NCBI RefSeq assembly: GCF_015206895.1
Contig: NZ_JADEXU010000074.1
Span: 1-32,000 of the forward strand
Reading direction: 5' to 3'
Length of the DNA stretch: 32,000 nt
Source of the DNA: Nostoc sp. LEGE 12450
GTDB lineage: Bacteria > Cyanobacteriota > Cyanobacteriia > Cyanobacteriales > Nostocaceae
Under the pieces are notes generated by a model. The model made no database searches, was not told the origin of the DNA, and saw nothing but the letters and a program-made list of their open reading frames with translations. Each line of letters opens with the position of its first letter. Positions within the stretch are counted from its first letter, which is position 1. A program made the translations under genes and the position numbers. Shown here piece after piece: positions 3,494 to 30,364 of this stretch.

Positions 3494-5161
3494 CTACTTA
3501 TATTCTGCAAACCATTCACACTGATTGCACCGCCATTTTAGCGCCTCTTTTTTAGGCAGATAAGATGAAAATTTAGGCAATTGCAAATATTTACTATCAA
3601 TTTCGCTATAGGAAGTACGCCGCAAACTAGGAGCAAGGTGTACCTGCATTGTCTCAGGGTTAATAGCAATTAGATTAAGGTCAAATAGTGTATGTATATC
3701 TGCCCGTAGGAGCAATCCATTTGAGGGGTGATTATTTTCAGTCTCAGTATAAGGAATGATGTGGGCAGCTTCCAAGGCTTCTTGTGCATCACATCCGGTG
3801 ATAGCACAGCGATAATTGTAGGCTTCGAGCAAACTTTGACGAAACTGAGGTTGTCCTTGCCGTCGAGCAATAGATATAGTGATTCGCTCTCTAGCTTGCT
3901 TTATACTTTTTGGATTGAAAAACCCGTCAGCCTCAATAACCGCAGTAAGCTCATTTATCTCTGCTAATTGATTGTGGTCAATCTTTTCTGAAATTCTCTG
4001 AATGTTTTGTTTATTAGTGTCTTCAACACGGTTATTTAAAATCGGTGGGTTAGCAGCAGACTTGTTTGTAGTTTCTACTTCTGTTGAGCTATCATTAACA
4101 GTTTCAGGGATTTCCTGAATGTCCTCAAGAATTGCATCTTTATCAGTAACATTGAAAGACTGGATGAGGTTCAGTGACTGCTGATAATATTCAACCCATC
4201 CACCTTGCTGATAAAGAGCAGCAGCTTTCTCTAAATCCTCAATGGCTCCTAGTTTATCACCTAATTGATAGCGGGCAAGACCACGGTATTCGTATACGTC
4301 AGGATATTTATCAGCAATCTTAATCGCATGGTTGTAATCTTCAATAGCTCTTTGATAATTTCTCAATTCATTGTAAGCATTGCCTCGGTTAATATAGTCA
4401 ACAGCATTGTTATAATCATTTTTATAAAAAGAAATTTCTTTACTGTAATCCTCAATCGCTCCCTCATAATCTCCCAGATTATAGCGAGCATTTCCGCGAT
4501 TGTTGTAGGTTGAGCAGTATCTAATCCGACTAGGATCTTTTTGAATTGCTGTGTTGTAATCCTTAATGGCTCCTTGATAATCTCCTAAATTAGCGCGTGC
4601 ATAGCCAAGGTCACTGTATAACTCAGCCCAATTGTAATAACCACAAAAATTACTAGGTGTTAGCTGAATTGCCTGTTCGTAATCCTTAATAGCCCCCTCA
4701 TAATCTCCCAATTCACTACGGGCTTGACCCCGTTGATAGTAAGCAGAGGGATAGTCAGGGTCAAGCTGAATTGACCTATCAGCATCTTCAAATGCTCCTT
4801 GGTAATTGCTCTGCTGGTAGTGCAATTCTGCTCGTAAATAATATGCAGAAGCATAGTTTGGATCTAGCTCAATCGCCTTGTTGTAATCCTCTATTGCTCC
4901 TTTATAATTTCTCAAGTTTCTGCGTTCCTGACCTCGCATACAATAAGCACTATCATCATTTGGATTTATGCAAATTGCTTGAGTATAATCCTCTATTGCT
5001 CCTTGATAGTCCCTTAGTAAATTACGAACGCTAGCTCGTTCTTTATAAGCATTAGCATCATTTCTATTTACCCGGATTTCTCTAGTCCAATATGTAAAAT
5101 CGCATTGTAATCTATTTTCATGACTCAAATCGTTTGGCAAAGCTTGATTATAATCTTCCAT
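3494..5161 (-). CDS. TPR-repeat protein fused to a C-terminal HNH endonuclease (HNH_2-like) domain
   Basis: The N-terminal ~330 aa are 34-aa TPR units (YQGAIEDYxxAIxLDPxxAxAYxxRG pattern). The C-terminus reads RRQGQPQFRQSLLEAYNYRCAITGCDAQEALEAAHIIPY...NGLLLRADIHTLFDLNLIAI, which is typical of the HNH_2 restriction-endonuclease-like family. Confidence 0.85.
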   Translation of the reverse strand: MEDYNQALPNDLSHENRLQCDFTYWTREIRVNRNDANAYKERASVRNLLRDYQGAIEDYTQAICINPNDDSAYCMRGQERRNLRNYKGAIEDYNKAIELDPNYASAYYLRAELHYQQSNYQGAFEDADRSIQLDPDYPSAYYQRGQARSELGDYEGAIKDYEQAIQLTPSNFCGYYNWAELYSDLGYARANLGDYQGAIKDYNTAIQKDPSRIRYCSTYNNRGNARYNLGDYEGAIEDYSKEISFYKNDYNNAVDYINRGNAYNELRNYQRAIEDYNHAIKIADKYPDVYEYRGLARYQLGDKLGAIEDLEKAAALYQQGGWVEYYQQSLNLIQSFNVTDKDAILEDIQEIPETVNDSSTEVETTNKSAANPPILNNRVEDTNKQNIQRISEKIDHNQLAEINELTAVIEADGFFNPKSIKQARERITISIARRQGQPQFRQSLLEAYNYRCAITGCDAQEALEAAHIIPYTETENNHPSNGLLLRADIHTLFDLNLIAINPETMQVHLAPSLRRTSYSEIDSKYLQLPKFSSYLPKKEALKWRCNQCEWFAEYK

Positions 5162-5446: not shown

Positions 5447-8236
5447 CTAGAGAGACATCCCTTTACCCTGTCTTCTTTCTTGTCGAAGAGCCTCTTCTCT
5501 TATTTCTTGCAATACACGCTCTGCTTTTTGCCAAAGCTGAATATCTTCTCTTTCTACTGACCCAATAGAAATCGGGGAATACTCAAGCTCACCTGACTGG
5601 TTTCGGTTGACTGCCACTCGAAAAATCTCACCTCGTTCATCATGGGTAAAGACCAGTTCTCTCCCCTGTTTCTCCAGAGTGGCACGTTTGAATCTAAGGC
5701 TATTTGAGCCAGTTTCTCTTAATTGCCAGTTGATTAATTCAACAGCAATAGGCACAGCCATCGCTAAGAATTCCGATTCTTTATGCTGCTTTTCATCGAG
5801 TGACTGTTCTGGTTCTGACTTTTGAGTTGCCAGTTGATTGCTAGCGATAAGTACTAATTCTCTGGCTTCATCTTGTGTCCATCCGGCTGGACTGGCAAAG
5901 ATAATTTCTTCAACATCTTGGGGTGACTTATTATCTAATAGCGCCCGTATAGCAATTTCTTTATCTCGGTCAGTCACTAATAAGTTTTGCAAGTCTGCGC
6001 TGTAATACTGATATAACTCGGCTGAAAGATTATCTTTTAACTTTGGTTCATCTGTGGTTATAGTTGGAGTTTGATTAAGAGCAATTGCGTCTACTGTTGT
6101 TTGCGATCTATGCAGTTGCTCCAAATAAACAATCGCTGCTTCCAGGTCGTCGAATATGGTTCTTCCGGCTGATAGCTGCTGCTGATTTTGAGAAAGTTGT
6201 TGTGTTAATTCTAATACTGTTTGGGTTAAAGCAGACTCGATAGCTGATTGCTCAATATAATCAAAGATTGATGAAATAGCTTTGTTTTCTGCGTGAGATT
6301 GCAACTCAGCCGTAACTGCTTCATCAAAGTCACTGAATGTAGTTTTAGCTGCAACTAGTTGTTGATGATATTGAGAAACTTGCTCTGTTAACCCTAATAC
6401 TGCTTGGCTTAAAGCTGACTCGATAGCTGATTGCTCAATATAATCAAAGATTGATGAAATGGCTTTCTGATCTGCATGGGATTGCAACTCAGCCGTCAAT
6501 GCTTCATCAAAGTCATTGAATGTAGTTTTATCTTTAACTAGTTGCTCTTTGTATTGAGACAGTTGCTCTGTTAATCCTAATACTGTTTCAGTTAAAGCTG
6601 ACTCGATAGTTGATTGCTCAATATAATCAAAGATTGATAAAATAGCTCTCTTCTCTGCATGAGATTGTAACTCAGCCGTCAATGCTGTTTCAAAGTCATT
6701 GAATGTAGTTTTCGCTTCAAGTAGCTGCTGATGATATTGAGAAACTTGCTGTGTTAATCCTAATACTGCTTGGCTTAAAGCTGACTCGATAGCTGATTGC
6801 TCAATATAATCAAAGATTGATAAAATGGCTTTCTGATCTGCATGGGATTGCAACTCAGCCGTAAATGCTTCATCAAAGTCATTGAATGTAGTTTTATCTT
6901 TAACTAGTTGCTGCCGATATTGAGATAGTTGCTCTGTTAATCTTAATACTGTTTCAGTTAAAGCTGACTCGATAGCTGATTGCTCAATATAATCAGAGAT
7001 TGACAAAATTGCTTTCTTCTCTGCGTGGGATTGCAACTCAGCCGTAAATGCTTCATCAAAGTCATTGAATGCAGTTTTAGCTCGAAAGAGTTGTTGCCGA
7101 TAAATAGATAGTTGTTCTGTTAATTGTGGCAACGTTTCAGCCAAGGCATCATCAACTACTGACTGTTCAATAAAGTCAGAGATTGCATCCACTGCTCTTT
7201 GTGATGATAGTCGTTGCTCTTTATTAACAATCGCGGCTCCCAGGTCGTCAAATGCGGTTTTTTCTGCTTCTTGCTGCTGCTGATACGCGGACAGTTGTTC
7301 TGTTAATTGTGGTAAAGTTTCAACCAAGGCATCATCAACTACTGACTGTTCGATAAAGTCAGCGATTATATTTATAAATCTTTGGCTCTCCACTGCTTGC
7401 TCTTTAGGATTCTTCAACAGATTCTCAATAAGCTCATCATCCCGTTGGGGCTGGTAGTCAATCCCCTTATGTTTTTGTAAACCTGGGAATGTGTAGGCAG
7501 GCCCCAAAGATGTGCCGCTAAATTTCTGGTCATTCCAAGAGTACGAAATGCCCTTACTTTTACCGTTGCGTGTTAAGCCATGACGAACTTCTACACCTTG
7601 TAGTTGCAACCGCTCAACCAGTTGGGGCATAGTTAGTTTATCTATTGTGGCGCGGTCGATTAGTTCCTGGAGTTGTTGCTTAATAGGGCGTTCTTGTGGT
7701 GTAAGGCGCTCACCATTGATATATTCAGAGTGTTCTCTTTCTAGCCGTTTTTGTTGTCCAATACTGGGATTACGCGATAATTTCTCATGACTGCTCTGGG
7801 TTTGTTGTAAACCATAATCTCGTTCTAGCTGCCGAATAATGGTTTCGCTACGCTTGTAATCCCAGCTATCATGTACAATCTTCCCGTTATCTAACCGAAT
7901 GCGGCTGGCGCAGATATGGATATGGTCATGCTCTGTGTTGCTATGTCTGTAAACAACGTACTGGTTACTGTCAAAGCCCATCTCTTCGAGATAGCGGTTA
8001 GCAAGTTCGTTCCAGGTTGGTTCGTCTAGTCGCTCGTTGTCTGGTAGTGATAATGATGCGTGATACACTACACGGTCAGCTTCTGGGTTTAGTTGTCGGG
8101 AAATTTTGAATTCTCTGGCCAGGGCACGGGCGTTATTGCCGCCCATATTGCCACCAATGAGTTTGGCATCTTTCTGAGACTCCAAATAATTCAGCAGTCC
8201 GCGAAACCCTCGCCCTTTAGTCTGGTTGCCAATCAT
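5447..8236 (-). CDS. Mobilisation relaxase (MobA/VirD2-type N-terminal domain) with a long internal 61-aa tandem-repeat region
   Basis: The N-terminus reads GRGFRGLLNYLE..., then VVYHASLSLP, then the histidine triad HSNTEHDHIHICASRI (HxDxxxHxH type). It overlaps the upstream MobC-like gene by 20 nt. Confidence 0.9.
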   Translation of the reverse strand: MIGNQTKGRGFRGLLNYLESQKDAKLIGGNMGGNNARALAREFKISRQLNPEADRVVYHASLSLPDNERLDEPTWNELANRYLEEMGFDSNQYVVYRHSNTEHDHIHICASRIRLDNGKIVHDSWDYKRSETIIRQLERDYGLQQTQSSHEKLSRNPSIGQQKRLEREHSEYINGERLTPQERPIKQQLQELIDRATIDKLTMPQLVERLQLQGVEVRHGLTRNGKSKGISYSWNDQKFSGTSLGPAYTFPGLQKHKGIDYQPQRDDELIENLLKNPKEQAVESQRFINIIADFIEQSVVDDALVETLPQLTEQLSAYQQQQEAEKTAFDDLGAAIVNKEQRLSSQRAVDAISDFIEQSVVDDALAETLPQLTEQLSIYRQQLFRAKTAFNDFDEAFTAELQSHAEKKAILSISDYIEQSAIESALTETVLRLTEQLSQYRQQLVKDKTTFNDFDEAFTAELQSHADQKAILSIFDYIEQSAIESALSQAVLGLTQQVSQYHQQLLEAKTTFNDFETALTAELQSHAEKRAILSIFDYIEQSTIESALTETVLGLTEQLSQYKEQLVKDKTTFNDFDEALTAELQSHADQKAISSIFDYIEQSAIESALSQAVLGLTEQVSQYHQQLVAAKTTFSDFDEAVTAELQSHAENKAISSIFDYIEQSAIESALTQTVLELTQQLSQNQQQLSAGRTIFDDLEAAIVYLEQLHRSQTTVDAIALNQTPTITTDEPKLKDNLSAELYQYYSADLQNLLVTDRDKEIAIRALLDNKSPQDVEEIIFASPAGWTQDEARELVLIASNQLATQKSEPEQSLDEKQHKESEFLAMAVPIAVELINWQLRETGSNSLRFKRATLEKQGRELVFTHDERGEIFRVAVNRNQSGELEYSPISIGSVEREDIQLWQKAERVLQEIREEALRQERRQGKGMSL
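6104..7385. repeat. Seven 183-nt (61-aa) tandem repeats inside the relaxase gene
   Basis: The anchor gattgctcaatataatc recurs at 6246, 6429, 6612, 6795 and 6978, with diverged copies at 7161 and 7344. The period is exactly 183. The protein units resemble AILSIFDYIEQSAIESALTETVLGLTEQLSQYRQQLVKDKTTFNDFDEAFTAELQSHADQK, with two alternating subtypes. Confidence 0.9.
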
Positions 8237-8729
8237 CTGTTTCCTCGTCCGATTCTTCGATGAAGGTATTGGCTATTTCCCGTTGGCAGTGTCGTAGCAG
8301 TTCTAGTAACTCTTGTAGAAGTTCTGGTGATGCTGGCGGTGGCAACTGCATTTTAATGGCGGTATTGGTGGCTTTGGCCAGTTGGTTGATGTTGTTGCCG
8401 ATGCGCGACAGTTCCAGGTATGTGTCTAGTGTAACTCTGCCCAGTCGCGGCGGTGGTGGTGGGATTGGTCGCAGTAACATACATCGTCTTGTCAATTCTC
8501 CCAAGCTCAAGCCCGTATCTTCTGCTTTAGAGCGAATCATCTCATATTCAATCGGGCTGAATCGCGCTTGCAACATTTTGGTGCGGACGAGTGACTGAGA
8601 AGAAGCTTTGGGCATAAGTAAAACTTGAGTTGATGCAGTTTTTGAGGGGGTTTCCAAAGTGGGGATACTTCCCCCTTTGGCAAGCCTGCCGAGTCGAGCT
8701 TTAGCGAGACAGCACGCAGTGCTAGGCAT
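8217..8729 (-). CDS. mobC: MobC-family relaxosome accessory protein. The true start is possibly ATG 8615 or 8576 rather than 8729.
   Basis: The sequence RFSPIEYEMIRSKAEDTGLSLGELTRRCML...YLELSRIGNNINQLAKATN matches the MobC pattern (RHH-like N-terminus plus GNNLNQ). It is translationally overlapped with the relaxase. The 5' 38 codons contain a strong hairpin and may be non-coding. Confidence 0.8.
   Translation of the reverse strand: MPSTACCLAKARLGRLAKGGSIPTLETPSKTASTQVLLMPKASSQSLVRTKMLQARFSPIEYEMIRSKAEDTGLSLGELTRRCMLLRPIPPPPPRLGRVTLDTYLELSRIGNNINQLAKATNTAIKMQLPPPASPELLQELLELLRHCQREIANTFIEESDEETDDWQPD
8654..8680. promoter_or_regulatory. Candidate oriT-type inverted repeat upstream of (or in the 5' extension of) mobC
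   Basis: ccaaagtgggga (8654-8665), tact, tccccctttgg (8670-8680). This gives an 11-bp stem with one bulged T and a 4-nt loop. The location is typical for an oriT IR, but I recognised no nic consensus. Confidence 0.3.
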
Positions 8730-9053
8730 GGCTTGCTCTGAACCAGTTTTTGGGGGAGGCAGAAGGACTAGGGGTACAACCCACTAGGGGACAAAGCGCG
8801 TAATCTCTGGATACCACAACCATGATATTACTAAGGAGTTAATGTAAATTACACTGTGTCAATTATTCGTGATAAGTCTGTGATTTATATTTGATTAACT
8901 GTTCGTGAGTTATCTTACACGCTATGAGTAATCAATGTTCAACCAATTACGTTAATATCTATTGCTGTTTCTTAACCAATTGTTGCATTGATAATTACCT
9001 GTCTTTAGATAGATGCTGCATATTCAAGTAAAGTTTTAAACATAAACATTAGT

Positions 9054-9596
9054 TTGATTTTTACTCTTGTGGCTAAAGACAATATTCCTAAGTCGAAGAT
9101 TCCAGACGCTCTTGATGCTCTACGCGCTTTGGGTGCTAAAGAATTAGATGATATCCCAGCACGAGCAGCTATTAAAAAGATGCGCCGTCAAATTGAGCGG
9201 GTGCTTCGTCTCGGATATAGCTACGAGGAAGTGTCTAAAACTTTAGCCCCTTTGGATATCAACATCAGCCCTGAACGTATCCGTTATTTACTTAACGATA
9301 TTCGTCGGTCTACACGCAAAAAGTCAGTTACTACTCCAAGTCTTGAGAATACTAGTACACCAGTTATTGATGAGCCGGCAGTTAGTGAGGATTCGACTTC
9401 TGAGCAAAGCACTAATCAGTCTGTTCAAAAATCAGAACCAGAATCAAAACCAGAATCAAAACCAGCTTCTTCAAAATCAACAACTACTAAAACTCCTAAA
9501 ACGGCTAAAAAGACCTCTGATGCTAAGGCTCTAGAGAATCAAAATTCCTCTCGCCTTGCTTTTGTGCCTGAAATAATAAACGACGAGGATTTGTAG
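9054..9596 (+). CDS. Hypothetical protein, possibly a DNA-binding partner of the ParA-like ATPase. It has a low-complexity K/S/T/P/E tail.
   Basis: TTG-start ORF immediately followed by the ParA-like gene (TAG then ATG). The segment IPARAAIKKMRRQIERVLRLGYSYEEVSKTLA looks HTH-like. The tail reads KSEPESKPESKPASSKSTTTKTPKTAKK. The start codon is uncertain. Confidence 0.55.
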   Translation: MIFTLVAKDNIPKSKIPDALDALRALGAKELDDIPARAAIKKMRRQIERVLRLGYSYEEVSKTLAPLDINISPERIRYLLNDIRRSTRKKSVTTPSLENTSTPVIDEPAVSEDSTSEQSTNQSVQKSEPESKPESKPASSKSTTTKTPKTAKKTSDAKALENQNSSRLAFVPEIINDEDL

Positions 9597-10376
9597 ATGG
9601 TAGTCAAACCTAAACAATCGGATGACCAAGTTCAGGAACAAAAGGCAACTGAACAGCCAAAAAATCTTGGGCGCTTGGTGTTGGTGACTGGTGATAAGGG
9701 CGGGACTGGTAAAAGTGTCATGGCTAGAATCCTACTCGACATTTACCGCCACAGAAATATTAACTGCATCGCTTACGAGTGTGACCAGTCTAATCCTCAG
9801 CTTTATCGTCATTACAACAAAGTCGCTCCTGGCGTGCAAACGCTCAAACTAAATCAGCGCGGTGGTGCTGATGCTTTGCAGGATGATTTAAAACGTTTAT
9901 CTCCTCAAGTTTCCCTTGTGGATCTGCCTGCTGGGGCTGCTGAGTATTTTGAGTCAGTCGCTAAGGATATTTTTCTGTTTCAAAATGCCCAGCGTTTGGG
10001 TTATCGCATCACTATGGTGTCGGTGCTGGGTCGGGTTAAAGATAGTCTGTTGCAGTTAAAACGGCTGGTGGATTTCTGCGGCGACAAAGTTGATTATGTA
10101 GTTGTGAAAAATCTTTACTGGGGTGATGAACACAAGTTTACTCGCTACAACAATTCTAAGATGAAGCAGGCTGTAGAAGCATTGGGGGCAATTGAACTGT
10201 TATTGCCTGAGTTGTATGACGATATTTTTGACCTCGTTGACTCCAAGGATCTAACATTCAGGGAGGCGTTAGAGCATGAGGATTTTAGTTTGAGTAATCA
10301 ATCGAGAGTTTATGGCTGGATTGATGCGGTTGAGACTGAGTTTTCTAAGGCGGCTGTACAGTTGGGGTTAGAGTAA
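9597..10376 (+). CDS. parA: ParA/MinD/VirC1-family deviant Walker-A ATPase
   Basis: LVLVTGDKGGTGKSVMA matches the KGGxGKS deviant Walker A. The size (259 aa) and plasmid context fit. Confidence 0.85.
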   Translation: MVVKPKQSDDQVQEQKATEQPKNLGRLVLVTGDKGGTGKSVMARILLDIYRHRNINCIAYECDQSNPQLYRHYNKVAPGVQTLKLNQRGGADALQDDLKRLSPQVSLVDLPAGAAEYFESVAKDIFLFQNAQRLGYRITMVSVLGRVKDSLLQLKRLVDFCGDKVDYVVVKNLYWGDEHKFTRYNNSKMKQAVEALGAIELLLPELYDDIFDLVDSKDLTFREALEHEDFSLSNQSRVYGWIDAVETEFSKAAVQLGLE

Positions 10377-11110
10377 TGGCTGTAAGTAATGGTAATGGCA
10401 ATGGTACGGTATCTCATTTAGATAGGTTGCTGTCAGAAAAGCCACCGGAATTTCAAGCGAAAGTGTTGCGGTTTGCTTTAGATTCTGGAATGAAACAAGA
10501 TGACCCAGCATTTCGACTGGTGCAGTACATTGGATATTTGGCGCAACTAACAGAAACTGCTCCGAATGATTGGAAGTTATTATTTGAAAATTTACAAGAT
10601 GAGTTAAACCAATGGAGTCAACTGACGGCGGAGCAATTGAAGGTTCAAGCCGACCACACGGAGAACATCAAAAATCTGGCGACCAGCTGCAATCAGCTAG
10701 GGACAGCCTTGAGCGCATTAAATCTAACATCTCAGCAACAACTCAAGCAATTGACGAGCTTAACCAAACTCTCCGAGAATTTGAACAATATCTCCCCCAG
10801 GCAACCAGAGACATTGAGCAAACCGTTGCAAGAACAATTGAACGAGATTCAGACGGGAATATCTCTATTGAACCAAAAAGACGTGGAATCAGTCGTTAAA
10901 GGTTGGACTAGAGCTATTAGAATCTGGCTTGTCTCTCCGATCTCATTTTTTATTCTGTTTTGGTTTTATTCACACATGACCCCAATCCCTACTCCTATTG
11001 AAACTACTGAGTCTCTACAGAAGATTTTGCAGAATACTGATTGGAGTAATGCCAAGCTTCAACGGGTTGAGAAAAAGTTGGGGACAGATCCAAACCGAAG
11101 ACGACGATAA
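10376..11110 (+). CDS. Hypothetical coiled-coil protein with a C-terminal transmembrane segment
   Basis: Its ATG overlaps the parA stop (TAATG). It has a Q/L-rich coiled-coil region and a hydrophobic stretch, IWLVSPISFFILFWFY. Confidence 0.7.
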   Translation: MAVSNGNGNGTVSHLDRLLSEKPPEFQAKVLRFALDSGMKQDDPAFRLVQYIGYLAQLTETAPNDWKLLFENLQDELNQWSQLTAEQLKVQADHTENIKNLATSCNQLGTALSALNLTSQQQLKQLTSLTKLSENLNNISPRQPETLSKPLQEQLNEIQTGISLLNQKDVESVVKGWTRAIRIWLVSPISFFILFWFYSHMTPIPTPIETTESLQKILQNTDWSNAKLQRVEKKLGTDPNRRRR

Positions 11111-11299
11111 AATTTGCTGTTGAAAACGCAATTTAAAAAAACTGGTCTGCATTACACGTTTTAGCCCAAACGTTGAATGCTGCATGAACTATGAGCCTAA
11201 AAAATAAGCTAACTAGAGATTTCTTCCATTAATTGCGTAATTTAGAACAAAAACCATGTACTAATAGTAGAATAAAACGTTAACCTTACGAGGTAGTAA

Positions 11300-11773
11300 A
11301 TGGAGCCATTAACTGCTGGTACGTTGATGCTTGCTTTCGTAGGAAGTAAACTCATTGATTGGTCAATTGGCAAAGCTTTTGATGCAGCTTATGACACAGC
11401 CAAGCAAGTTCTGGCAAAGAAATCTCCTGAAACGGCAGAGGCTTTAGCAGCCGCAGCAGAACAAGCTTCATTACCCGCCGCAGAGCGAAAAAATATTGGT
11501 GTTGCTGTTTTGGTAGATAAAGTAGAAAAAGTAGCGCAGGCAGATCCGGAGATTAAAGATGCAGTGGAAGCGTTAGGAAATCAAGCCTACGCCTCTGCAC
11601 AAGATAATCCTGCTCTGGCAAAGGCTATTCAAGAGTTAACACAAACCATTAAAGCTCAAAAACCACCCAGCCAGAACCCAGCCAAAATAGCGGAAACAAT
11701 CGGAATTAACGAACAGAATATTTCAGGTGGTGAGGTTGTTCAGCATTTTGGTTCAGGTAATATCCAAATTTGA
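11300..11773 (+). CDS. Small helical protein (157 aa) with an N-terminal hydrophobic helix (MEPLTAGTLMLAFVGSKLI) and a G/N/Q-rich tail. Candidate HeLo/Bell-like N-terminal module of NLR-like locus A (terminated form).
   Basis: ORF track. GAGGTAG lies 4 nt upstream of the ATG. It is a paralog of 1958-2389. It ends at TGA 11771-11773, in frame with the NB-ARC-TPR ORF. Confidence 0.75.
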   Translation: MEPLTAGTLMLAFVGSKLIDWSIGKAFDAAYDTAKQVLAKKSPETAEALAAAAEQASLPAAERKNIGVAVLVDKVEKVAQADPEIKDAVEALGNQAYASAQDNPALAKAIQELTQTIKAQKPPSQNPAKIAETIGINEQNISGGEVVQHFGSGNIQI

Positions 11774-14023
11774 CTACAGTCGCCCGAACGGGAACGGGTA
11801 AAGTTAAATCCCCCACAAAATATTCCTCCTAGTAGCACAGATAAATTTGTCGGACGAGAAAGAGAATTAGAACGCCTCCAACAACAGTTACAATCCAATC
11901 ATGCGGTGGTAATTGCTGCTGTGGAAGGGATGGGGGGAGTTGGTAAAACCGAATTAGCAATCCAATATTCACTACTAAATTTGCAGTTGCACAGCTACCC
12001 TGGCGGTATCTGCTGGTTAAGAGCTAGAGAGTCAGATATTGGGTTACAAATATTACAATTTGCTACAATAGACTTGGGTAAAAAGCCGCCAGAAGATTTG
12101 GAGTTACTAGAACGAGTACGTTGGTGCTGGCAACATTGGCGGCAGGGGAATACGCTAATAGTCCTTGATGATGTTAATAGTTACAGTCACATTGAACCGT
12201 ATCTACCACCCCAACCATCTCAATTTCAGGTACTAATTACTACACGCCTAAAGCTAGATTTACTTAGTTCTCTGTTTTTGAAAGTTTTATCAGAAACAGA
12301 CGCACTCTTGTTACTAGCTCAATCAATTGGAGAAGCAAAGCAAAACCAAGAATTAGCACAAGCCCAAGAAATTTGTCAGCGTTTAGGCTATTTGCCCTTA
12401 GCTTTGCAATTAGTCGGTAGGTATGTAAAGAGACACAAGATATCATTAGCTGAAATACTGCGACGCTTAGAGGAAAAAGGATTAGCTCATCCTTCGTTAG
12501 TTGTGAAAGAAAATGACCCCACTTGGAATTCAAATGTCAAACTTGGAGTAGCGGCGGCTTTTGAATTAAGTTGGGAACAATTAAGTAATGATGCTCAACA
12601 GTTAGGTTGTTTAGTAAGCTTATTTGCTTTAGCTCCGATTCCTTGGTCGTTGGTGAAACGTGCCGCTCCAGAGGAAGACCAAGAAGAATTAGAAGATGCC
12701 AGAGTTGAATTAGAAAATTTGCATTTGCTACAAGGTGAAAAAACTTATGAATTACATCAGCTAATTCGTGAATTTCTGAGAGACAAGCAAAAAAACTTAG
12801 CTACTGCGTCAGAGCAAAAGTCTCATTTCTGCCAAACAATGGTAGAAGTGGCAAAGGAAATTCCCTCTTCACCTACTCAAAAATTCATTAGTTCAGTCAA
12901 AGATGATATGCCACATTTAGCAGAGGTGGGACAAAATTTGATTGATGCAGTCACTGATGAAAACTTAATTTGGGTTTTTTATGGCTTAGATAGATTTTAC
13001 TCTGGACAGGGTTTATATACTCTAGCAGAACCTTGGGATGAGCTATGTGTATCAGTAGTAAAACATCGCTTGGGAGAAGAACATCCCAATGTCGCTACCA
13101 GTTACAACAACCTGGCTTTACTCTACTATTCCCAAGGGCGGTACAGCAAAGCCGAACCACTGTATCTAAAAGCTTTGGAACTCAGGCAACGGCTGTTGGG
13201 AGAAGAACATCCCGATGTCGCCACCAGTTACAACAACCTGGCTGTACTCTACCATTCCCAAAGACAGTACAGCAAAGCCGAACCACTGTATCTAAAAGCT
13301 TTGGAACTTTGGCAACGGCTGTTGGGAGAAGAACATCCCGATGTCGCTATTAGTTACAACAACCTGGGTGGGCTTTACCATTCCCAAAGACAATACAGCA
13401 AAGCCGAACCACTGTATCTAAAAGCTTTGGAACTTTGGCAACGGCTGCTGGGAGAAGAACATCCCGATGTCGCCACTAGTTACCACAACCTGGCTTTACT
13501 CTACTATTCCCAAGGACAGTACAGCAAAGCCGAACCACTGTATCTAAAAGCTTTGGAACTCAGGCAACGACTGCTGGGAGAAGAAAATCGCAATGTCGCT
13601 ACCAGTTACAACAACCTGGCTTTACTCTACTATTCCCAAGGACAGTACAACAAAGCCAAACCATTGTATCTAAAAGCTTTATTACTCAGGCAGCGGCTGC
13701 TGGGAGAAGAACATCCTGATATCGCTACCAGTTACCACAACCTGGCTTTACTCTACTATTCCCAAGGACAGTACAACAAAGCCAAACCATTGTATCTAAA
13801 AGCTTTATTACTCAGGCAGCGGCTGCTGGGAGAAGAACATCCTGATGTCGCCACCAGTTACCACAACCTGGCTTTACTCTACTATTCCCAAGGACAGTAC
13901 AGCGAAGCCGAACCACTGTATCTAAAAGCTTTGAAAATTGCTGAACTTAGCTTAGGGGTAAATCATCCCAGCACAGCCACTATCCGTAAAAATCGGAAAT
14001 ACTTGTGCAATAATTGCCTTTAA
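11774..14023 (+). CDS. NB-ARC (STAND) NTPase with a TPR sensor (NLR-like locus A body). The ORF track starts it at GTG 11906, but the conserved domain begins right after the TGA.
   Basis: Codons 11774-11905 are open, in frame and have no ATG/GTG/TTG. They encode LQSPERERVKLNPPQNIPPSSTDKFVGRERELERLQQQLQSNHA. Downstream motifs are GMGGVGKTELA (P-loop), LIVLDDV (Walker B), VLITTR and GYLPLALQ (GLPL). Seven 42-aa TPR units follow. Confidence 0.85.
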   Translation, partial: LQSPERERVKLNPPQNIPPSSTDKFVGRERELERLQQQLQSNHAVVIAAVEGMGGVGKTELAIQYSLLNLQLHSYPGGICWLRARESDIGLQILQFATIDLGKKPPEDLELLERVRWCWQHWRQGNTLIVLDDVNSYSHIEPYLPPQPSQFQVLITTRLKLDLLSSLFLKVLSETDALLLLAQSIGEAKQNQELAQAQEICQRLGYLPLALQLVGRYVKRHKISLAEILRRLEEKGLAHPSLVVKENDPTWNSNVKLGVAAAFELSWEQLSNDAQQLGCLVSLFALAPIPWSLVKRAAPEEDQEELEDARVELENLHLLQGEKTYELHQLIREFLRDKQKNLATASEQKSHFCQTMVEVAKEIPSSPTQKFISSVKDDMPHLAEVGQNLIDAVTDENLIWVFYGLDRFYSGQGLYTLAEPWDELCVSVVKHRLGEEHPNVATSYNNLALLYYSQGRYSKAEPLYLKALELRQRLLGEEHPDVATSYNNLAVLYHSQRQYSKAEPLYLKALELWQRLLGEEHPDVAISYNNLGGLYHSQRQYSKAEPLYLKALELWQRLLGEEHPDVATSYHNLALLYYSQGQYSKAEPLYLKALELRQRLLGEENRNVATSYNNLALLYYSQGQYNKAKPLYLKALLLRQRLLGEEHPDIATSYHNLALLYYSQGQYNKAKPLYLKALLLRQRLLGEEHPDVATSYHNLALLYYSQGQYSEAEPLYLKALKIAELSLGVNHPSTATIRKNRKYLCNNCL
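13070..13951. repeat. Seven 126-nt (42-aa) tandem TPR-coding repeats with very high nucleotide identity
   Basis: The unit start ttgggagaagaacatcc recurs at 13070, 13196, 13322, 13448, 13574, 13700 and 13826. Two consecutive units (about 13604-13860) are nearly identical over more than 110 nt. The protein unit is LGEEHPDVATSYNNLALLYYSQGQYSKAEPLYLKALELRQRL. Confidence 0.9.
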
Positions 14024-14159
14024 AGCTAGTGTAAGAGAGCGATTTTTTGCGGAGAAGATAGGTGACAATTAAGCTGGGATTTTAAGCGTTAATCATCCCA
14101 AAACCTTGAAACTTTGTAGACGCAAGTTTGGTGTAACGAACAGTGTGCTGAATATTGTT

Positions 14160-16355
14160 ATGGCTTCTCGTAGTAATCCACTTCGTGTCAACTTAGTTTT
14201 TGCAAACCTGATTCGTGGCAATCTAGGTGGTGCCTTTCGGATTCTTAAAAATTTGATTCGTGCCAATCTGATCTATGCCGATCTGCACCAAACCAACCTC
14301 AGCAGTGCTAACCTCAGCAGTGCCAACCTCAGCAGTGCCAACCTCAGCAGTGCCAACCTCAGCAATGCCAACCTCAGCAGTGCTAACCTCAGCAGTGCCA
14401 ACCTCAGTAGTGCCGACCTCAGTAGTGCCGACCTCAGTAGTGCCGACCTCAGTAGTGCCAACCTCAAGAATGCTAACCTCAAGAATGCTAACCTCAAGAA
14501 TGCTAACCTCAGTAGTGCCTATCTCTATGGTGTAATTTTCAACAAAAACACACAGATTGCTGTTAAATGGCGTTTGGTTTGGAAAATTGTTAATCAGGGA
14601 GTCAAAGATGGAGATTTAAGTAATACAGACCTCAGTGGTGTCAACCTCAGTGGTGTCAACCTAAGTGGTGTCAACCTAAGTAGTGCCAACCTCAGCGGTA
14701 CCAACCTCAGTGGTGTCAAGCTTTACCGTGCCAACCTCAATAGTGCCAACCTCAATAGTGCCAACCTCAATAGTGCCAACCTCAGTAGTGCCAACCTCAG
14801 TAGTGCCAACCTCAGCAGTGCCAACCTCAGCAGTGCCAACCTCAGTAGTGCCGACCTCAGTAGTGCCGACCTCAAGAATGCTAACCTCAAGAATGCTAAC
14901 CTCAAGAATGCTAACCTCAAGAATGCTAACCTCAGTAGTGCCTATCTCTATGGTGTAATTTTCAACAAAAATACACAGATTGCTGTTAAATGGCGTTTGG
15001 TTTGGGAAATTGTTAATCAGGAAGTCAAAGATCGAGATTTAAGTAATACAGACCTCAGTGGTGTCAACCTCAGTGGTGTCAACCTCAGTGGTATCAACCT
15101 CAGCGGTACCAACCTCAGCGGTACCAACCTCAGTGGTGTCAACCTTTACCGTGCCAACCTCAATAGTACCAATCTCAGTAGTGCCAACCTCAGCGGTACC
15201 AACCTCAGTAGTGCCAACCTCAGTAGTGCCAATCTCAGCAGTGCCAACCTCAGTATTGTCAACCTTCAGGATACTGATCTTTCAGGTGCTGATCTCCGCG
15301 ATGCTTATCTTTCAGGTACTGACCTCCATCGTGCCAACCTCAGCAGAGCCAACCTCAGCAATGCCAACCTTCGCGATGCCAACCTTCGCGATGCCAACCT
15401 TCGCGATGCCAACCTCAGAACTACTGACCTCGGTAGTGCCTATCTGTATGGTGTAATTTTTAACGAAAAGACACAAATTGGTAGCAAATGGCGTTTGGTT
15501 TGGGAGATTGTTAATCAGGGAGCCAAAGGTCGAGATTTAAGTAATGCCGACCTCAGCAGTTCCAACCTCAGCAGTTCCAACTTCCGCGATGCCAATCTCA
15601 GCAGTGCTAACCTCAACGGTGCTAACCTCCGCAGTGCCGACCTTCGCGGTGCCGACCTCCGCGGTGCCGACCTCCGCGGTGCTAAACTTTACGGTGTAAT
15701 TTTTAACGAAAAGACGCAAATTGGTAGCAAATGGCATTTGGTTTGGGAGATTGTTAATCAGGGAGCCAAAGGTCAAGATTTAAGTAATGTCGACCTCAGC
15801 GGTGCAGACCTCAGCGGTGCAGACCTCAGCGGTGCAGACCTCAGCGGTGCTAACCTCAGCGGTGCTAATCTCAGCGGTGCTAATCTCGGCGGTACTAATC
15901 TTAGTGATGCCGACCTCCGCAGTGCTAACCTCAGCGGTGCCTATCTTTACAGTGCTAACCTCAGCGGTGCCGACCTCAGAGGTGCCTATCTCTATGGTGT
16001 AATTTTTAACGAAAAGACGCAAATTGGTAGCAAATGGCATTTGGTTTGGGAGATTGTTAATCAGGGAGCCGAAGGTCGAGATTTAAGTAATGTCGACCTC
16101 AGCGGTGCAGACCTCAGCGGTGCTAACCTCAGCGGTGCAGACCTCAGCGGTGCAGACCTCAGCGGTGCTAACCTCAACGGTGCCAACCTCAACGGTGCCA
16201 ACCTCAAGAATGCTAACCTCAATGGTGCTTATATTTACAGTGCCAACCTCAACGGTGCCAACCTCAACGGTGCCAACCTCAAGAATGCTAATCTTGAAAA
16301 CACCTTATTTGATAGCAGTATAGGACTTAGAGATCGCATGAAGCATAACTTTTGA
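14160..16355 (+). CDS. Multi-module pentapeptide-repeat protein (six A(D/N)LSx blocks separated by five conserved linkers). The ORF is open from TTG 14106.
   Basis: Long runs of [15 protein letters not shown] pentapeptides. The linker AYLYGVIFN(K/E)xTQIxxKW(R/H)[17 protein letters not shown] recurs at about 14519, 14941, 15440, 15686 and 15983. ATG 14160 gives MASRSNPL... Confidence 0.85.
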
Positions 16356-27572: not shown

Positions 27573-30364
27573 CATTCTTATATTAGAGCGTTTTTGAGAT
27601 AATTTATTTTCACATATCTTTTGAAAATCTATAGGTAGAAAATAGATTTCTTAGAATAAGTTTAATTGTATACATTCTTTTGTACTTACTATTTCCTCTT
27701 CCTTTTCTAATGTTTCTAATATTTTACCTTTATGTTTACCAGGACGATTAGTAGGTATTATTAATATTGACTTTATTTCATGTTTTTCAATTATTCCTGC
27801 GAAGTAAAACCATGAAAGTAATCTACTAGTATAATGATCAAATTTATTCCTTGTAATGGGTCTTATATGTGTTGTAAATAATTCATTATATTCAGACGCT
27901 TTTGAGTTATCTTTATCTGGATATATTGTTTTTAACAAGTCTTTAAGCATCTGTCTGTTAAAATATGTTCCTGGGCAAATTATATGATTTTTAGGTTTAT
28001 TACTTCTGTTGACCTCTTTAATAATTAAATGTTCTTTTAATTGTTCTCCTAAATAATCTGCGATTTCATCGTTGTTTAGCTTTAATAAATCTTCTGCAAC
28101 TGAAAGTGAGTTACTTTTTGTATCATATTCAACCTGGAAGAAATGGCGTAAATCGCTAATAATGTTATCAATGATTCTAGATTTAGGATTATTCGATATC
28201 ATTTTAGACTTTATTAGTTTATTTATTAAATCTGATTTGGTTTTTTCTGTCTCCAACATACGAAATACTTCTAATATGAAGTAAACAGGACGTTTTGGTA
28301 TATAAGTTGTACTAAAATCTGGTAATTGAACTTCGTTAGTTAAAATATATTCACGCAAAATATCGGATGTAACTGTATAGTCAAAGCCTGATTGAATAAT
28401 TAATTTTTTTTCTATTAATATTTTTATTTCTTTTTCATAAATTCCAAATATATTGCTAGTTTCATAATGGGCTATCTTTTGGAGACATTCAAATTCTCTT
28501 GGGTGTAAATCTTTTAAATCATCTGCAAGCATATCAGTTACCAATTTACTAATTTGCTGATATTTTATTGGAAATTGGGAATCTGTTTGGTTCTTGGAAA
28601 ATCTAGTAAATAATTTTCTTAGTAACCAAGGGAAAGCATAACATTCCTCTAAAATCCATTCTTCTAATTGATTGAGTTTCTTCAATTCTTGGGATTTGTT
28701 TGGTTTTTGTTTTAAGTATTTTTTAAAAATGTAAATATAGTTTTTAGCATCTTTGGGTACAAATTCATCAATTGTAAATAATTCCATTTCCTCTCTTAGT
28801 TTTTCCCATCTATATCTTATATCTTCGTTTAAAACTAAAGATGCTGCTTTTGTCCAAGAAAAACCTAATACTAGATTTGCTTTTTCTAAACAAAGTTCGT
28901 GAATTAATGTTTCAAATAAATTAAAGGTCTTTTCGAGTCTTGGCTGCCGTAGTAAATGTTCAAAATGATCAAAAAAGACAACAATTACCTTATTATCGTC
29001 TCTTATTTTTTTTAATACTTCTTTGATTGATGATTGATTTAAAAATAATGAATTTTCTTTTATTTTTATTTCATCACATATATATGGAGGTAGTTCAATG
29101 AACCCTTTTTCAATTGCATTTGCAATAGCTATTTTAATTGCTATTGCTCCAAAATATTCAGTTTTTGCAAATTTTGCATCAACTTGTTTGATAAATACAT
29201 TGTTACTGTAAAATTCTTCACTTTCTGATTTTAATTTCAAAATTAAAGATGATTTACCTATGCCTGAATGTCCTTGAAAACAAATAATTCTTTTTGCAGT
29301 TTTATTATCTTTTACATTAGAAATAAAATTCCAGAAATCTTCCTTTTTTTCGTCTCTACCAACAAAATATTTAGGATTACATGCTGTATTATCAACATCA
29401 AAGTCTTCAGCAAAATTAACTGGTGAAATTATCTCGTTATCAGTATTTTTGTATAGTCCATCAAAAAAATATTTGTGTTTTATAACTGTTACTTTACTTA
29501 TGATACTGTTAAGTATTTCTTTTGTAATTTGCTTTGCTTCAATAATCAGGTTTGATTTTTTATAACTTGAATTTTTAAATATATATTGATATATTATCTT
29601 TGGAGATTGAACATTAAGCGAACTAGCACTTAAACATTTAGCGATAAGCATTTCCTTGATGTATTCAACTTGCTCAGTTGTTAAATTTTTAGTAATTAAA
29701 TACTTTGATAAATTACTAAATAAAACGGATTCTATATCGTCTAATCCAGATGTTTGTTGAATCTCTATTTTTTTTAATACTTGAATAATAGTTTTTTGTT
29801 GGTTATCTGCCCTTATTATATTTTTAGCTGCTATATTATCCAATAAAAAAATTAAATCTTTATCTATATTATCTATCTCATTTATATCAACCTTATGAGC
29901 TAAATTTAATAAATACTGCAAGTTACTGCCATTTTCTTGTTCGTCCCAAAAACCACAATTGGCAGCTATTATAAATTTTTCAAATTGGTTATCACTAAAA
30001 AATGAGTCATGGTTGATAAATCTTATTATTGTTTTAGTTATTTCCTTCTCATTAGCTTTAAATGGTTCTTTTTCTTTAGCTCTAGTTTTAACTTGAATAC
30101 CAATAAATTTTTTGTTAACTCGTTCTACTAAAATGTCTTCATGGTGTTCACAATATATGGAACTTATTTCGGTATCTTTTTCCAACAACGACAAAGATAG
30201 CTGTGCTGCATAAATAGCTTGATAGCGAAAACGTCTCTGTATATCGTCACCTGGATCTTTACTTATAAAATTCTCTGGTGTTATTGATTCATTCATAAGC
30301 TGATTTCCTTTATATTGATGTAAAAATTATTATTTCACAATTGTGTATAGTATTTGAATTTATC
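27573..30364. other. Compositionally distinct AT-rich islet (spot-counted lines give roughly 15-28% GC, versus ~40-58% in flanking lines)
   Basis: GC was counted by eye on several 60-nt lines inside (for example 28381, 29101, 29821) and outside (for example 27361). The shift is sharp at both gene boundaries. Confidence 0.6.
27651..30296 (-). CDS. 881-aa fusion: an N-terminal PD-(D/E)xK nuclease resembling the Cap4/DUF4297 dsDNA endonuclease domain, a central STAND/AAA-type P-loop NTPase, and a C-terminal helical region. Avs-like single-gene defence candidate.
   Basis: The N-terminus reads GDDIQRRFRYQAIYAAQLSLSLL...IYCEHHEDILVE...IGIQVKTR. The centre has YFVGRDEKKEDF, then Walker A CFQGHSGIGKSSL, then Walker B VIVVFFDHFEHL. 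AAGGAAA lies 8 nt upstream of the ATG. Confidence 0.8.
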   Translation of the reverse strand: MNESITPENFISKDPGDDIQRRFRYQAIYAAQLSLSLLEKDTEISSIYCEHHEDILVERVNKKFIGIQVKTRAKEKEPFKANEKEITKTIIRFINHDSFFSDNQFEKFIIAANCGFWDEQENGSNLQYLLNLAHKVDINEIDNIDKDLIFLLDNIAAKNIIRADNQQKTIIQVLKKIEIQQTSGLDDIESVLFSNLSKYLITKNLTTEQVEYIKEMLIAKCLSASSLNVQSPKIIYQYIFKNSSYKKSNLIIEAKQITKEILNSIISKVTVIKHKYFFDGLYKNTDNEIISPVNFAEDFDVDNTACNPKYFVGRDEKKEDFWNFISNVKDNKTAKRIICFQGHSGIGKSSLILKLKSESEEFYSNNVFIKQVDAKFAKTEYFGAIAIKIAIANAIEKGFIELPPYICDEIKIKENSLFLNQSSIKEVLKKIRDDNKVIVVFFDHFEHLLRQPRLEKTFNLFETLIHELCLEKANLVLGFSWTKAASLVLNEDIRYRWEKLREEMELFTIDEFVPKDAKNYIYIFKKYLKQKPNKSQELKKLNQLEEWILEECYAFPWLLRKLFTRFSKNQTDSQFPIKYQQISKLVTDMLADDLKDLHPREFECLQKIAHYETSNIFGIYEKEIKILIEKKLIIQSGFDYTVTSDILREYILTNEVQLPDFSTTYIPKRPVYFILEVFRMLETEKTKSDLINKLIKSKMISNNPKSRIIDNIISDLRHFFQVEYDTKSNSLSVAEDLLKLNNDEIADYLGEQLKEHLIIKEVNRSNKPKNHIICPGTYFNRQMLKDLLKTIYPDKDNSKASEYNELFTTHIRPITRNKFDHYTSRLLSWFYFAGIIEKHEIKSILIIPTNRPGKHKGKILETLEKEEEIVSTKECIQLNLF

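Follow-up and report, generated by a model that had tools for sequence, protein, structure and literature searches.

A conserved UGA junction and RNA hairpin between Bell-type effectors and start-less sensor bodies in cyanobacteria: a candidate programmed readthrough signal

Organization of the locus

The stretch of DNA analysed here (the window) comprises 32,000 nucleotides (nt) of Nostoc sp. LEGE 12450, contig NZ_JADEXU010000074.1, and carries at positions 11300 to 14023 an NLR-like gene interrupted by one in-frame UGA codon. A 157-codon open reading frame (ORF), from ATG 11300 to 11770 on the plus strand, is terminated in the window sequence by TGA 11771-11773; the same frame (frame 0) then stays open for a further 749 sense codons up to TAA 14021-14023, so that the whole spans 157+1+749 = 907 codons. 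The first in-frame ATG, GTG or TTG past the stop is GTG 11906, at codon 45, and the P-loop GMGGVGKT starts at codon 52. The +1 frame closes 10 codons after the UGA and the –1 frame after 20. No plus-strand terminator-like site was found between the effector ORF and the body ORF.

Pfam places the onset of an NB-ARC match (E = 8.9e-16) at residue 29 of the post-TGA translation, within the start-less linker, and recovers seven TPR_10/TPR_12 units downstream of it (about E = 1e-107). A preliminary description, made from the letters of this DNA alone, had reported the TGA, the shared frame, the start-less stretch and a total of about 907 codons, with NB-ARC and TPR domains in the body; the sequence agrees with it at every coordinate, and the domain search with both assignments. 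PADLOC has no model for the upstream module (the N-module) and gave generic TPR matches only for the body. The deposited proteins of this strain, P0121 (157 amino acids, aa) and P0001 (733 aa), are 100% identical to the window, and the first residues of P0001 correspond to post-TGA codon 17, ATT 11822, from which it has apparently been annotated. The features of the gene are as follows.

11300-11770 (+): effector ORF, 157 codons; MEPLTAG hydrophobic helix, helical bundle, C-terminal BASS-like GINEQNISGGEVVQHFGSGNIQI
About 11702-11770 (+): stretch coding for the BASS-like motif GINEQNISGGEVVQHFGSGNIQI, at the C-terminal end of the effector ORF
11771-11773 (+): proposed readthrough UGA, context AUU UGA CUA C; TGA in 32/32 junctions
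11774-11781 (+): 8-nt spacer CUACAGUC between UGA and hairpin; alignments gapless, 8 nt in all members
11782-11799 (+): hairpin S1, GCCCG 11782-11786, 8-nt loop AACGGGAA 11787-11794, CGGGU 11795-11799; from covariation and RNAalifold
11790-11812 (+): probable pseudoknot helix S2, loop GGGA 11790-11793 with UCCC 11809-11812; from pairing across loci
11800-11808 (+): A-rich connector AAAGUUAAA, 9 nt, spanned by S2
11774-14023 (+): start-less sensor body; 14-codon structured linker, NIP/FVGRE lead-in, NB-ARC, TPR_10/12, TAA 14021-14023
About 11858-12442 (+): NB-ARC of the body (Pfam)
About 13091-13945 (+): TPR_10/12 repeats of the body (Pfam)

The upstream module

The effector ORF begins MEPLTAGTLMLAFVG, in which MEPLTAG… forms a hydrophobic helix of the MEP(I/L)x type. 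The AlphaFold model (pLDDT 63) has helices at residues 3-14, 25-41, 43-56, 68-81, 83-102 and 104-120, followed by an unstructured tail of low confidence (residues 121-157). This tail, GINEQNISGGEVVQHFGSGNIQI, is BASS-like in its position, its length and its G/N/Q-rich composition. Gene pairs that signal through a Bell domain and BASS amyloid motifs have been described by Dyrka, Saupe and co-workers (bioRxiv 10.1101/2020.01.06.895854); according to the paper on the Bab/Agp antiphage system, a 'MEPIS'-type N-terminus is a hallmark of Bell, and a Bell-type protein acts in abortive infection (bioRxiv 10.1101/2024.11.07.622273).

The N-module family (alignment A1) includes the upstream partners of canonical Bell-BASS/BASS-NLR pairs. 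In pairs of this kind the effector tail …ENWQGINIKGGENTISNPTLNFGSK* recurs at the overlapping NLR start MTNENWQGINIKGGETNINNP…, after which comes SPPNIP…FVGRE…GMGGVGKT, and relatives with tails of the ENWQGINIKGG... type likewise have the matching motif at the NLR N-terminus. On these sequence relationships we read the upstream module as a membrane effector of the Bell type that ends in a putative BASS amyloid signalling motif. The preliminary description had called it a helical N-terminal module, which agrees with the predicted helices, and had missed its identity as a Bell effector with a putative amyloid tail. Pfam gave no match to the N-module, and a Foldseek search of its AlphaFold model against the PDB gave none below E = 1, so the Bell fold is without structural confirmation. 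The EACC1/EAD modules of Aravind were considered for this module and rejected: EACC1 is a single-transmembrane (TM) caspase partner and belongs to a different family.

Survey of junctions across cyanobacteria

The junction that follows the N-module was read in 47 genomic loci, 13 metagenomic loci and several plasmid or contig loci, and falls into three classes. Class A comprises 32 distinct junctions with the pattern …N TGA CTA CAG YC GCCCG-N8-CGGGT AAAGTYAAATCCCC…, and, with few exceptions, frame 0 then runs on for 99 to more than 1330 codons. Class B junctions read …AAA TGA with an ATGA overlap, at which the downstream NLR starts in a different frame. Class C effectors end at TAA or TAG and are followed by terminator-like repeats, with no partner gene. 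In classes B and C frame 0 never runs beyond 84 codons, and only in locus L060, a 1-kb metagenome contig, does it exceed 40.

The class A hosts are Nostoc, Calothrix, Dendronalium, Microseira, Stenomitos and Floridaenema, together with three Acaryochloris plasmids and plasmid pCC7120gamma of Nostoc PCC 7120. The stop is TGA in 32/32 junctions and is followed by C in 30/32; the next codon is CTA in 25/32, and the nucleotide before the stop is T in 24/32. A start-like triplet (TTG, ATG or GTG) lies in the NTGA overlap of 28/32. A metagenome scan yielded only 13 extra loci, two of them with a UGA junction, and the junction motif had 0 matches in viral contigs. When a covariance model built from 24 junctions was run over the 497 kb of collected sequence, its matches were such junctions only, and included two new ones, in Acaryochloris (L067 491-541) and on the minus strand of the window itself. 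The recurrence of the same stop, the same frame and the same 45-nt block in 32 junctions is, by these sequence counts, far beyond chance. A decayed junction (TAA TAT TGA…, 24.9 bits) lies at L046 4397-4451, where the frame is shut at once; this locus is probably dead.

A long frame that is intact but for a lone stop usually signals a sequencing error or a recent nonsense mutation in a pseudogene. The preliminary description had allowed for a sense codon at 11771-11773; at this position all 32 related junctions retain TGA. The 32 independent TGA junctions, each with the structured block, come from different cyanobacterial orders and from complete plasmids as well as metagenomes, and the window alone has two copies. 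Decay would also leave uninterrupted fusions elsewhere. The 43 protein clusters homologous to the N-module are all 132-166 aa long; HMMER over 1.84 billion protein representatives gave 281 relatives, and among the best 150, on which lengths were judged, 146 have 174 aa or fewer, and the other four, which are longer, are not fused to an NLR. No uninterrupted Bell-NLR orthologue was thus found among the 43 clusters or the best 150 of 281 relatives, which counts against decay. Taken together, these comparisons exclude error or pseudogene formation, to which we give almost no weight.

A conserved RNA block after the UGA

Between loci, the 45 nt that begin with the TGA are on average about 80% identical, as against 34-39% for the 45-nt flanks on either side. 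Codon positions 1, 2 and 3 of the block are 75, 83 and 78% identical; third positions are as conserved as the others, which points to selection on the nucleic acid rather than on the encoded peptide LQSPERERVKLNPP. From the alignment RNAalifold predicts a single helix, GCCCG/CGGGU, with an 8-nt loop and an onset 8 nt past the stop (S1). Over 29 sequences 99.3% of its cells are paired, and double-sided changes (CG to UA or GC) occur in 3/5 pairs; compensated variants include GUCCU/AGGAC in L035, GUCGG/CCGAC in L049 and ACCCG/CGGGU in L033. A second helix (S2), which pairs the S1 loop with sequence downstream, is 85.3% paired and has a double-sided change in 3/4 pairs. Compensation with a shift in register is seen for S2 as AGGAGG/CCUCCU in L070 and L071, as GGGGA/UCUCC in L063 and, read from the sequence, as GGAA/UUCC in L073, and loop-to-downstream helices of 7 base pairs (bp) are present in L045, L064 and the second copy in the window.

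Double-sided changes affect six pairs of the whole structure, compared with a mean of 1.5 after shuffling and a count reached in 0 of 500 shuffles, and sliding the partner columns by one position halves the paired fraction. We treat hairpin S1 as established. An outer helix AUUUGACU/AGUUAAAU (window 11768-11809), suggested by the single-sequence minimum free energy fold, would enclose the UGA; it is 79% paired across loci with no double-sided changes, and its sequestering of the stop is possible and unproven. A scan of positions 11000-12300 against Rfam, with E values up to 10, gave two matches at chance level only and no fitting family.

An in-frame UGA with a hairpin behind it is formally like a bacterial SECIS element, since G residues of the apical loop lie about 17 nt past the UGA, and selenocysteine insertion was therefore considered. 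We regard it as very improbable. The selenocysteine-decoding trait (SelA/SelB) has not been detected in Cyanobacteria (PMC1794560), yet the motif is present in Nostoc PCC 7120. Moreover, the UGA is found between domains, in an unstructured linker, and not at a redox site, no homologue in the family has cysteine at the UGA position, the block has no Rfam match, and pairing with a C-run is not a SECIS feature. No tRNA or suppressor tRNA was found in the window.

The sensor bodies and portability of the junction

Class A bodies have no BASS of their own and set in, after the 14-codon structured linker, at the 'NPPQNIP…FVGRE' lead-in that follows the BASS in other NLRs. Past its UGA the window body passes from the linker directly to FVGRE, with no copy of the BASS and no start codon. 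Its closest homologues (P0002-P0006, 76-81% identity) have their own ATG and an N-terminal BASS (…NVQANGNITVGNITQIY…), and at their loci a Bell gene ends 4 nt upstream of the NLR. A class A body thus begins where the BASS ends, and the readthrough product would have the BASS-NLR layout with Bell in front. The preliminary description had raised the prospect of homologues with a consistent, independent start for NB-ARC; these occur only in a different architecture, the ATGA-overlapping pairs, in which the NLR has its own N-terminal amyloid motif.

The first canonical start codon in these bodies often lies at or beyond the P-loop, at codon 103 versus 54 in L002 and at codon 84 versus 56 in L064, the PCC 7120 copy. 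In L065 and L066 it is at codon 57 versus 56, and in L037 and L069 at codon 53 versus 52. RefSeq seems to have begun four of the bodies at ATT codons, those of the window, L065 and L066 at codon 17 and that of L064 at codon 22, and other post-UGA bodies apparently from codons inside or after conserved N-terminal motifs. These ATT and internal starts look like a systematic artefact of the missing start codon.

The same junction joins Bell heads to NB-ARC-TPR, a second NB-ARC type, NACHT-HEAT, NACHT, CHASE2 and GUN4-like bodies. In plasmid pMB04 of Acaryochloris sp. Moss Beach (L067 491-541) it follows an alpha/beta-hydrolase effector, whose partner is an NB-ARC-type body labelled as a TPR protein in RefSeq; the hydrolase terminates in the BASS (…ISGGEVYQGENITINKTT*) that the Bell proteins there also have, which shows that the cassette does not depend on a Bell head. 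Protein P0270 (412 aa) has an uninterrupted Bell, BASS-like, TM and GUN4 layout, and L032 4436-5521 consists of Bell, UGA-hairpin and GUN4; the same architecture thus exists with and without the stop, and Bell-GUN4 fusions are viable products. One body subtype (L003 4011-6277, L005 and L035) stops after about 370 codons (367, 375 and 372, respectively). In L003 a separate TPR ORF follows in a different frame, which could be a genuine split or another unrecognised event.

Given this variety of partners, the block could act mainly at the DNA or RNA level, as a recombination crossover at which Bell-BASS heads are swapped among bodies and the stop is incidental. The joining of at least seven kinds of body with two kinds of effector, the abrupt fall in identity at both edges of the block, and the position of the loci on plasmids and near transposases all fit such a role. 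Compensatory changes point instead to selection on a folded single strand, and not only on sequence identity. Nor does shuffling account for a stop that is always in frame (TGA throughout, with C next in 30/32) and always 8 nt from the helix, or for start-less bodies that are intact over hundreds of codons. As the main explanation it seems improbable to us; shuffling at the block may coexist with readthrough.

Proposed programmed readthrough versus separate initiation

Since the body frame is preserved for hundreds of codons in more than 25 loci, the bodies must be expressed. With no start before the P-loop in several loci, the +1 and –1 frames closed, and no near-cognate start codon positionally conserved across body types, decoding of the UGA in frame is the only route that fits all members. 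We consider it probable that a single transcription and translation unit gives two proteins through programmed UGA readthrough, an abundant Bell-BASS and a rare Bell-BASS-NLR; its occurrence and efficiency, the residue inserted, the role of the structure and the amyloid relay are what we infer from the comparisons above. The preliminary description had likewise read the locus as one gene decoded through its UGA; the conserved layout supports this, readthrough itself being deduced from sequence, and the hairpin, the likely pseudoknot and the second copy had escaped it.

Most ribosomes would stop at UGA 11771 and release the 157-aa Bell-type effector, a latent membrane-targeting helical domain with its BASS. 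A minority would decode the UGA by a near-cognate tRNA, most likely tRNA-Trp. UGA-C is the weakest context for release factor 2 (RF2) reported for E. coli, and an 8-nt spacer puts a helix at the mRNA entry channel with the stop in the A site, as in the readthrough signals of murine leukaemia virus (MuLV) and alphaviruses. Readthrough at the cyanobacterial junctions may accordingly be favoured both by the weak UGA-C(UA) context and by the compact GC-rich hairpin, probably an H-type pseudoknot, that would stand at the entry channel while the UGA occupies the A site. The predicted product is a 907-aa Bell-BASS-linker-NB-ARC-TPR protein, in which the single BASS would sit where ordinary relatives have the N-terminal BASS of the NLR. 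By analogy with the Bell/BASS-NLR and HET-S/NWD2 systems, ligand-driven oligomerisation of the rare sensor could nucleate the amyloid fold of its BASS, and this fold could template the abundant free Bell-BASS and lead to membrane damage.

Several observations weigh against readthrough. The canonical form of the system is two separate polypeptides, and to our knowledge no structure-stimulated readthrough signal has been established in cellular bacterial genes besides SECIS and PYLIS, so the mechanism lacks precedent. Some bodies have a start before their first domain – TTG at codon 25 in L004, ATG at codon 22 in L007, and GTG at codon 30 in L003, L005 and L067 – and independent initiation is possible there. 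S1 has just 5 bp, and the single-sequence fold is ordinary (z = –0.43). The 4-bp S2 is not significant in per-sequence shuffles, and its C-run doubles as codons for a conserved Pro-Pro; for these reasons, together with the ordinary folding energy, S2 and hence an H-type pseudoknot are graded only as probable.

The main alternative is that termination at the UGA is absolute and the body is a second protein, initiated at a non-canonical codon (e.g. ATT) or by 70S reinitiation; the hairpin would then serve for coupling, occlusion or stability. The canonical relatives, which are two translationally coupled polypeptides, the apparent ATT starts, the start-like NTG in the NTGA overlap at most junctions, and the GTG or TTG ahead of the first domain in some bodies all speak for it. 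The NTG triplet is, however, in the –1 frame, which is shut after 20 codons, and no near-cognate start keeps its position from one body type to another. The isoleucine of the 'NIP' motif is internal in homologues that have their own ATG, and L002 and L064 have no canonical start until 28-49 codons beyond the P-loop. A separately initiated body would be without a BASS and have no known signalling route to Bell-BASS. It would also be left unexplained why the stop is strictly TGA, never TAA or TAG, and why frame 0 is just as strictly kept. We therefore judge separate initiation unlikely, while giving it more weight than any other competitor of readthrough.

Two further recoding events were tried and rejected. 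Bypassing of the T4 gene 60 type, with take-off at AUU and landing at AUU 11822, would use a landing codon that is not conserved in L002 or L003. A –1 frameshift heptamer, AAAUUUG, is in the wrong phase and is present in the window only.

Comparison with known systems

The autoregulatory +1 frameshift site of prfB, the gene for RF2, reads CUU UGA CUA C and exploits slow RF2 termination at UGA-C. The junctions described here read NNU UGA CUA C, nearly the same tetranucleotide and next codon. A prfB-type +1 shift was nonetheless rejected: the +1 frame is shut after 10 codons at a conserved UAA inside CGGGUAAAG, and the productive frame is frame 0. Unlike prfB, the junctions have heterogeneous P-site codons, with no conserved slippery codon (CAC, ACC, AAC and ACT occur), and lack an upstream Shine-Dalgarno stimulator.

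Viral readthrough signals include the UAG of MuLV gag-pol with a pseudoknot 8 nt downstream, the UGA-C and 3′ stem-loop of alphaviruses and coltiviruses, and the A1 UGA of phage Q-beta, for which we know of no structural stimulator. Shared with these are an in-frame stop between an abundant short product and a rare extended one, both as predicted for the present genes, the UGA-C(UA) context, and a covarying structure about 8 nt downstream, likely an H-type pseudoknot with an A-rich connecting loop. The cyanobacterial element is much smaller than the MuLV pseudoknot, and differs from the viral signals in belonging to a cellular or plasmid gene of bacteria, with 70S ribosomes and termination by RF2.

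The genes closely resemble Bell-BASS/BASS-NLR pairs. In both, the effector combines an N-terminal hydrophobic helix of the MEP type with a helical domain of some 100-130 aa and ends in a motif rich in G, N and Q, and a collinear gene directly downstream encodes an NB-ARC or NACHT protein that has TPR or other repeats. Both are found in filamentous cyanobacteria, where the same Bell family (A1) forms canonical ATGA-overlapping pairs with matching motifs. They differ in that the window NLR ORF lacks both BASS and start codon and lies in frame behind a UGA and an RNA structure; the two products would share one BASS, and a Bell domain would form part of the sensor too. Neither paper on the Bell and BASS systems (bioRxiv 10.1101/2020.01.06.895854 and 10.1101/2024.11.07.622273) mentions stop codons, readthrough or frameshifting.

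All-in-one effector-NLRs – the HeLo/HELL-NLRs of fungi, and in bacteria Avast2 and bNACHT proteins with a Bell-like 'MEPIS' N-terminus – resemble the predicted fusion in combining a membrane-targeting helical domain, a NOD and repeats. Each of these is encoded by one continuous ORF; a pool of free effector and an amyloid motif between the domains are both absent.

The preliminary description knew of no such expression logic for prokaryotic NLR-like proteins, and full-text searches, which took in the Bell/BASS papers and the Aravind conflict-system paper, found no earlier account of such readthrough, whether for NLR genes or for those of cyanobacteria. Each of the two parts, the Bell/BASS-NLR relay and readthrough stimulated by structure, is known; what appears to be new is that they are combined, and that a signal of this kind should occur in cellular bacterial genes. 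We lean, by a little, towards the broader claim that this is the first conserved structure-stimulated readthrough signal in cellular bacterial genes besides those for selenocysteine and pyrrolysine, in the form of a portable 45-nt cassette ('UGA-CUA + 8 nt + mini-pseudoknot') that would weld amyloid-tailed death effectors (Bell, alpha/beta-hydrolase) to interchangeable sensors (NB-ARC, NACHT, CHASE2, GUN4). The abundant effector and the rare effector-sensor fusion would in that case have a single amyloid motif in common. Translation itself would fix their stoichiometry and the match between their motifs, perhaps with a response to RF2 activity or to stress on translation.

If readthrough does take place, the block would amount to a cis-element, defined and transplantable, that programmes bacterial ribosomes to read through UGA; we know of essentially none outside selenocysteine and pyrrolysine. 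It would give prokaryotic NLR immunity a new way to set the effector-to-sensor ratio, with an identical amyloid signalling motif guaranteed in sensor and effector, and would bridge the 'two-gene amyloid relay' and the 'all-in-one' architectures of fungal and bacterial NLRs. It would also correct a systematic mis-annotation, in which bodies are given a start at ATT, or else one that falls within or beyond the P-loop. The pCC7120gamma copy (L064, 65522-70384), with a Bell ORF of 138 aa, makes this reading directly testable in the genetic model Nostoc/Anabaena PCC 7120.

The second copy and the window neighbourhood

The minus-strand copy in the window, which was outside the training set of the covariance model, scores 47.6 bits (E = 5e-8). 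Its features are as follows.

1961-2383 (–): second Bell-type effector ORF, which starts MEPLTAGVIATLAFTK and ends HNITFNNT (window sequence)
1913-1960 (–): second junction, TGA 1960-1958, spacer CUACAGCC, hairpin GCCCG (1949-1945)/UUGGGGAA/UGGGU (1936-1932) (covariance model)
2-1957 (–): second start-less body, NB-ARC of the GLGSVGKS type, at least 652 codons, in frame with the second Bell ORF and running off the window start

The NB-ARC match of this body (E = 1.4e-22) starts at residue 35, its first in-frame start codon is codon 48 and its P-loop is at codon 55.

A metagenome contig (L069 1-2808) is syntenic with the plasmid backbone at window 5447-11110. The shared genes are NikA/relaxase (–), then a 180-aa ORF, a ParA-like ATPase and a DUF6753 protein, and the contig has its own Bell-UGA-hairpin-NB-ARC-TPR gene in the same position as that of the window.

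Elsewhere in the window, positions 27651-30296 (–) encode an 881-aa protein that combines a Cap4-type dsDNA endonuclease domain with a STAND NTPase region and is of defence type and plasmid-borne, and positions 3494-5161 (–) a 555-aa protein with TPR repeats and a C-terminal HNH endonuclease domain. Directly 3′ of the NLR, positions 14106-16355 (+) encode a 749-aa pentapeptide-repeat protein with several large internal duplications, the repeats of which yield long spurious ORFs in other frames.

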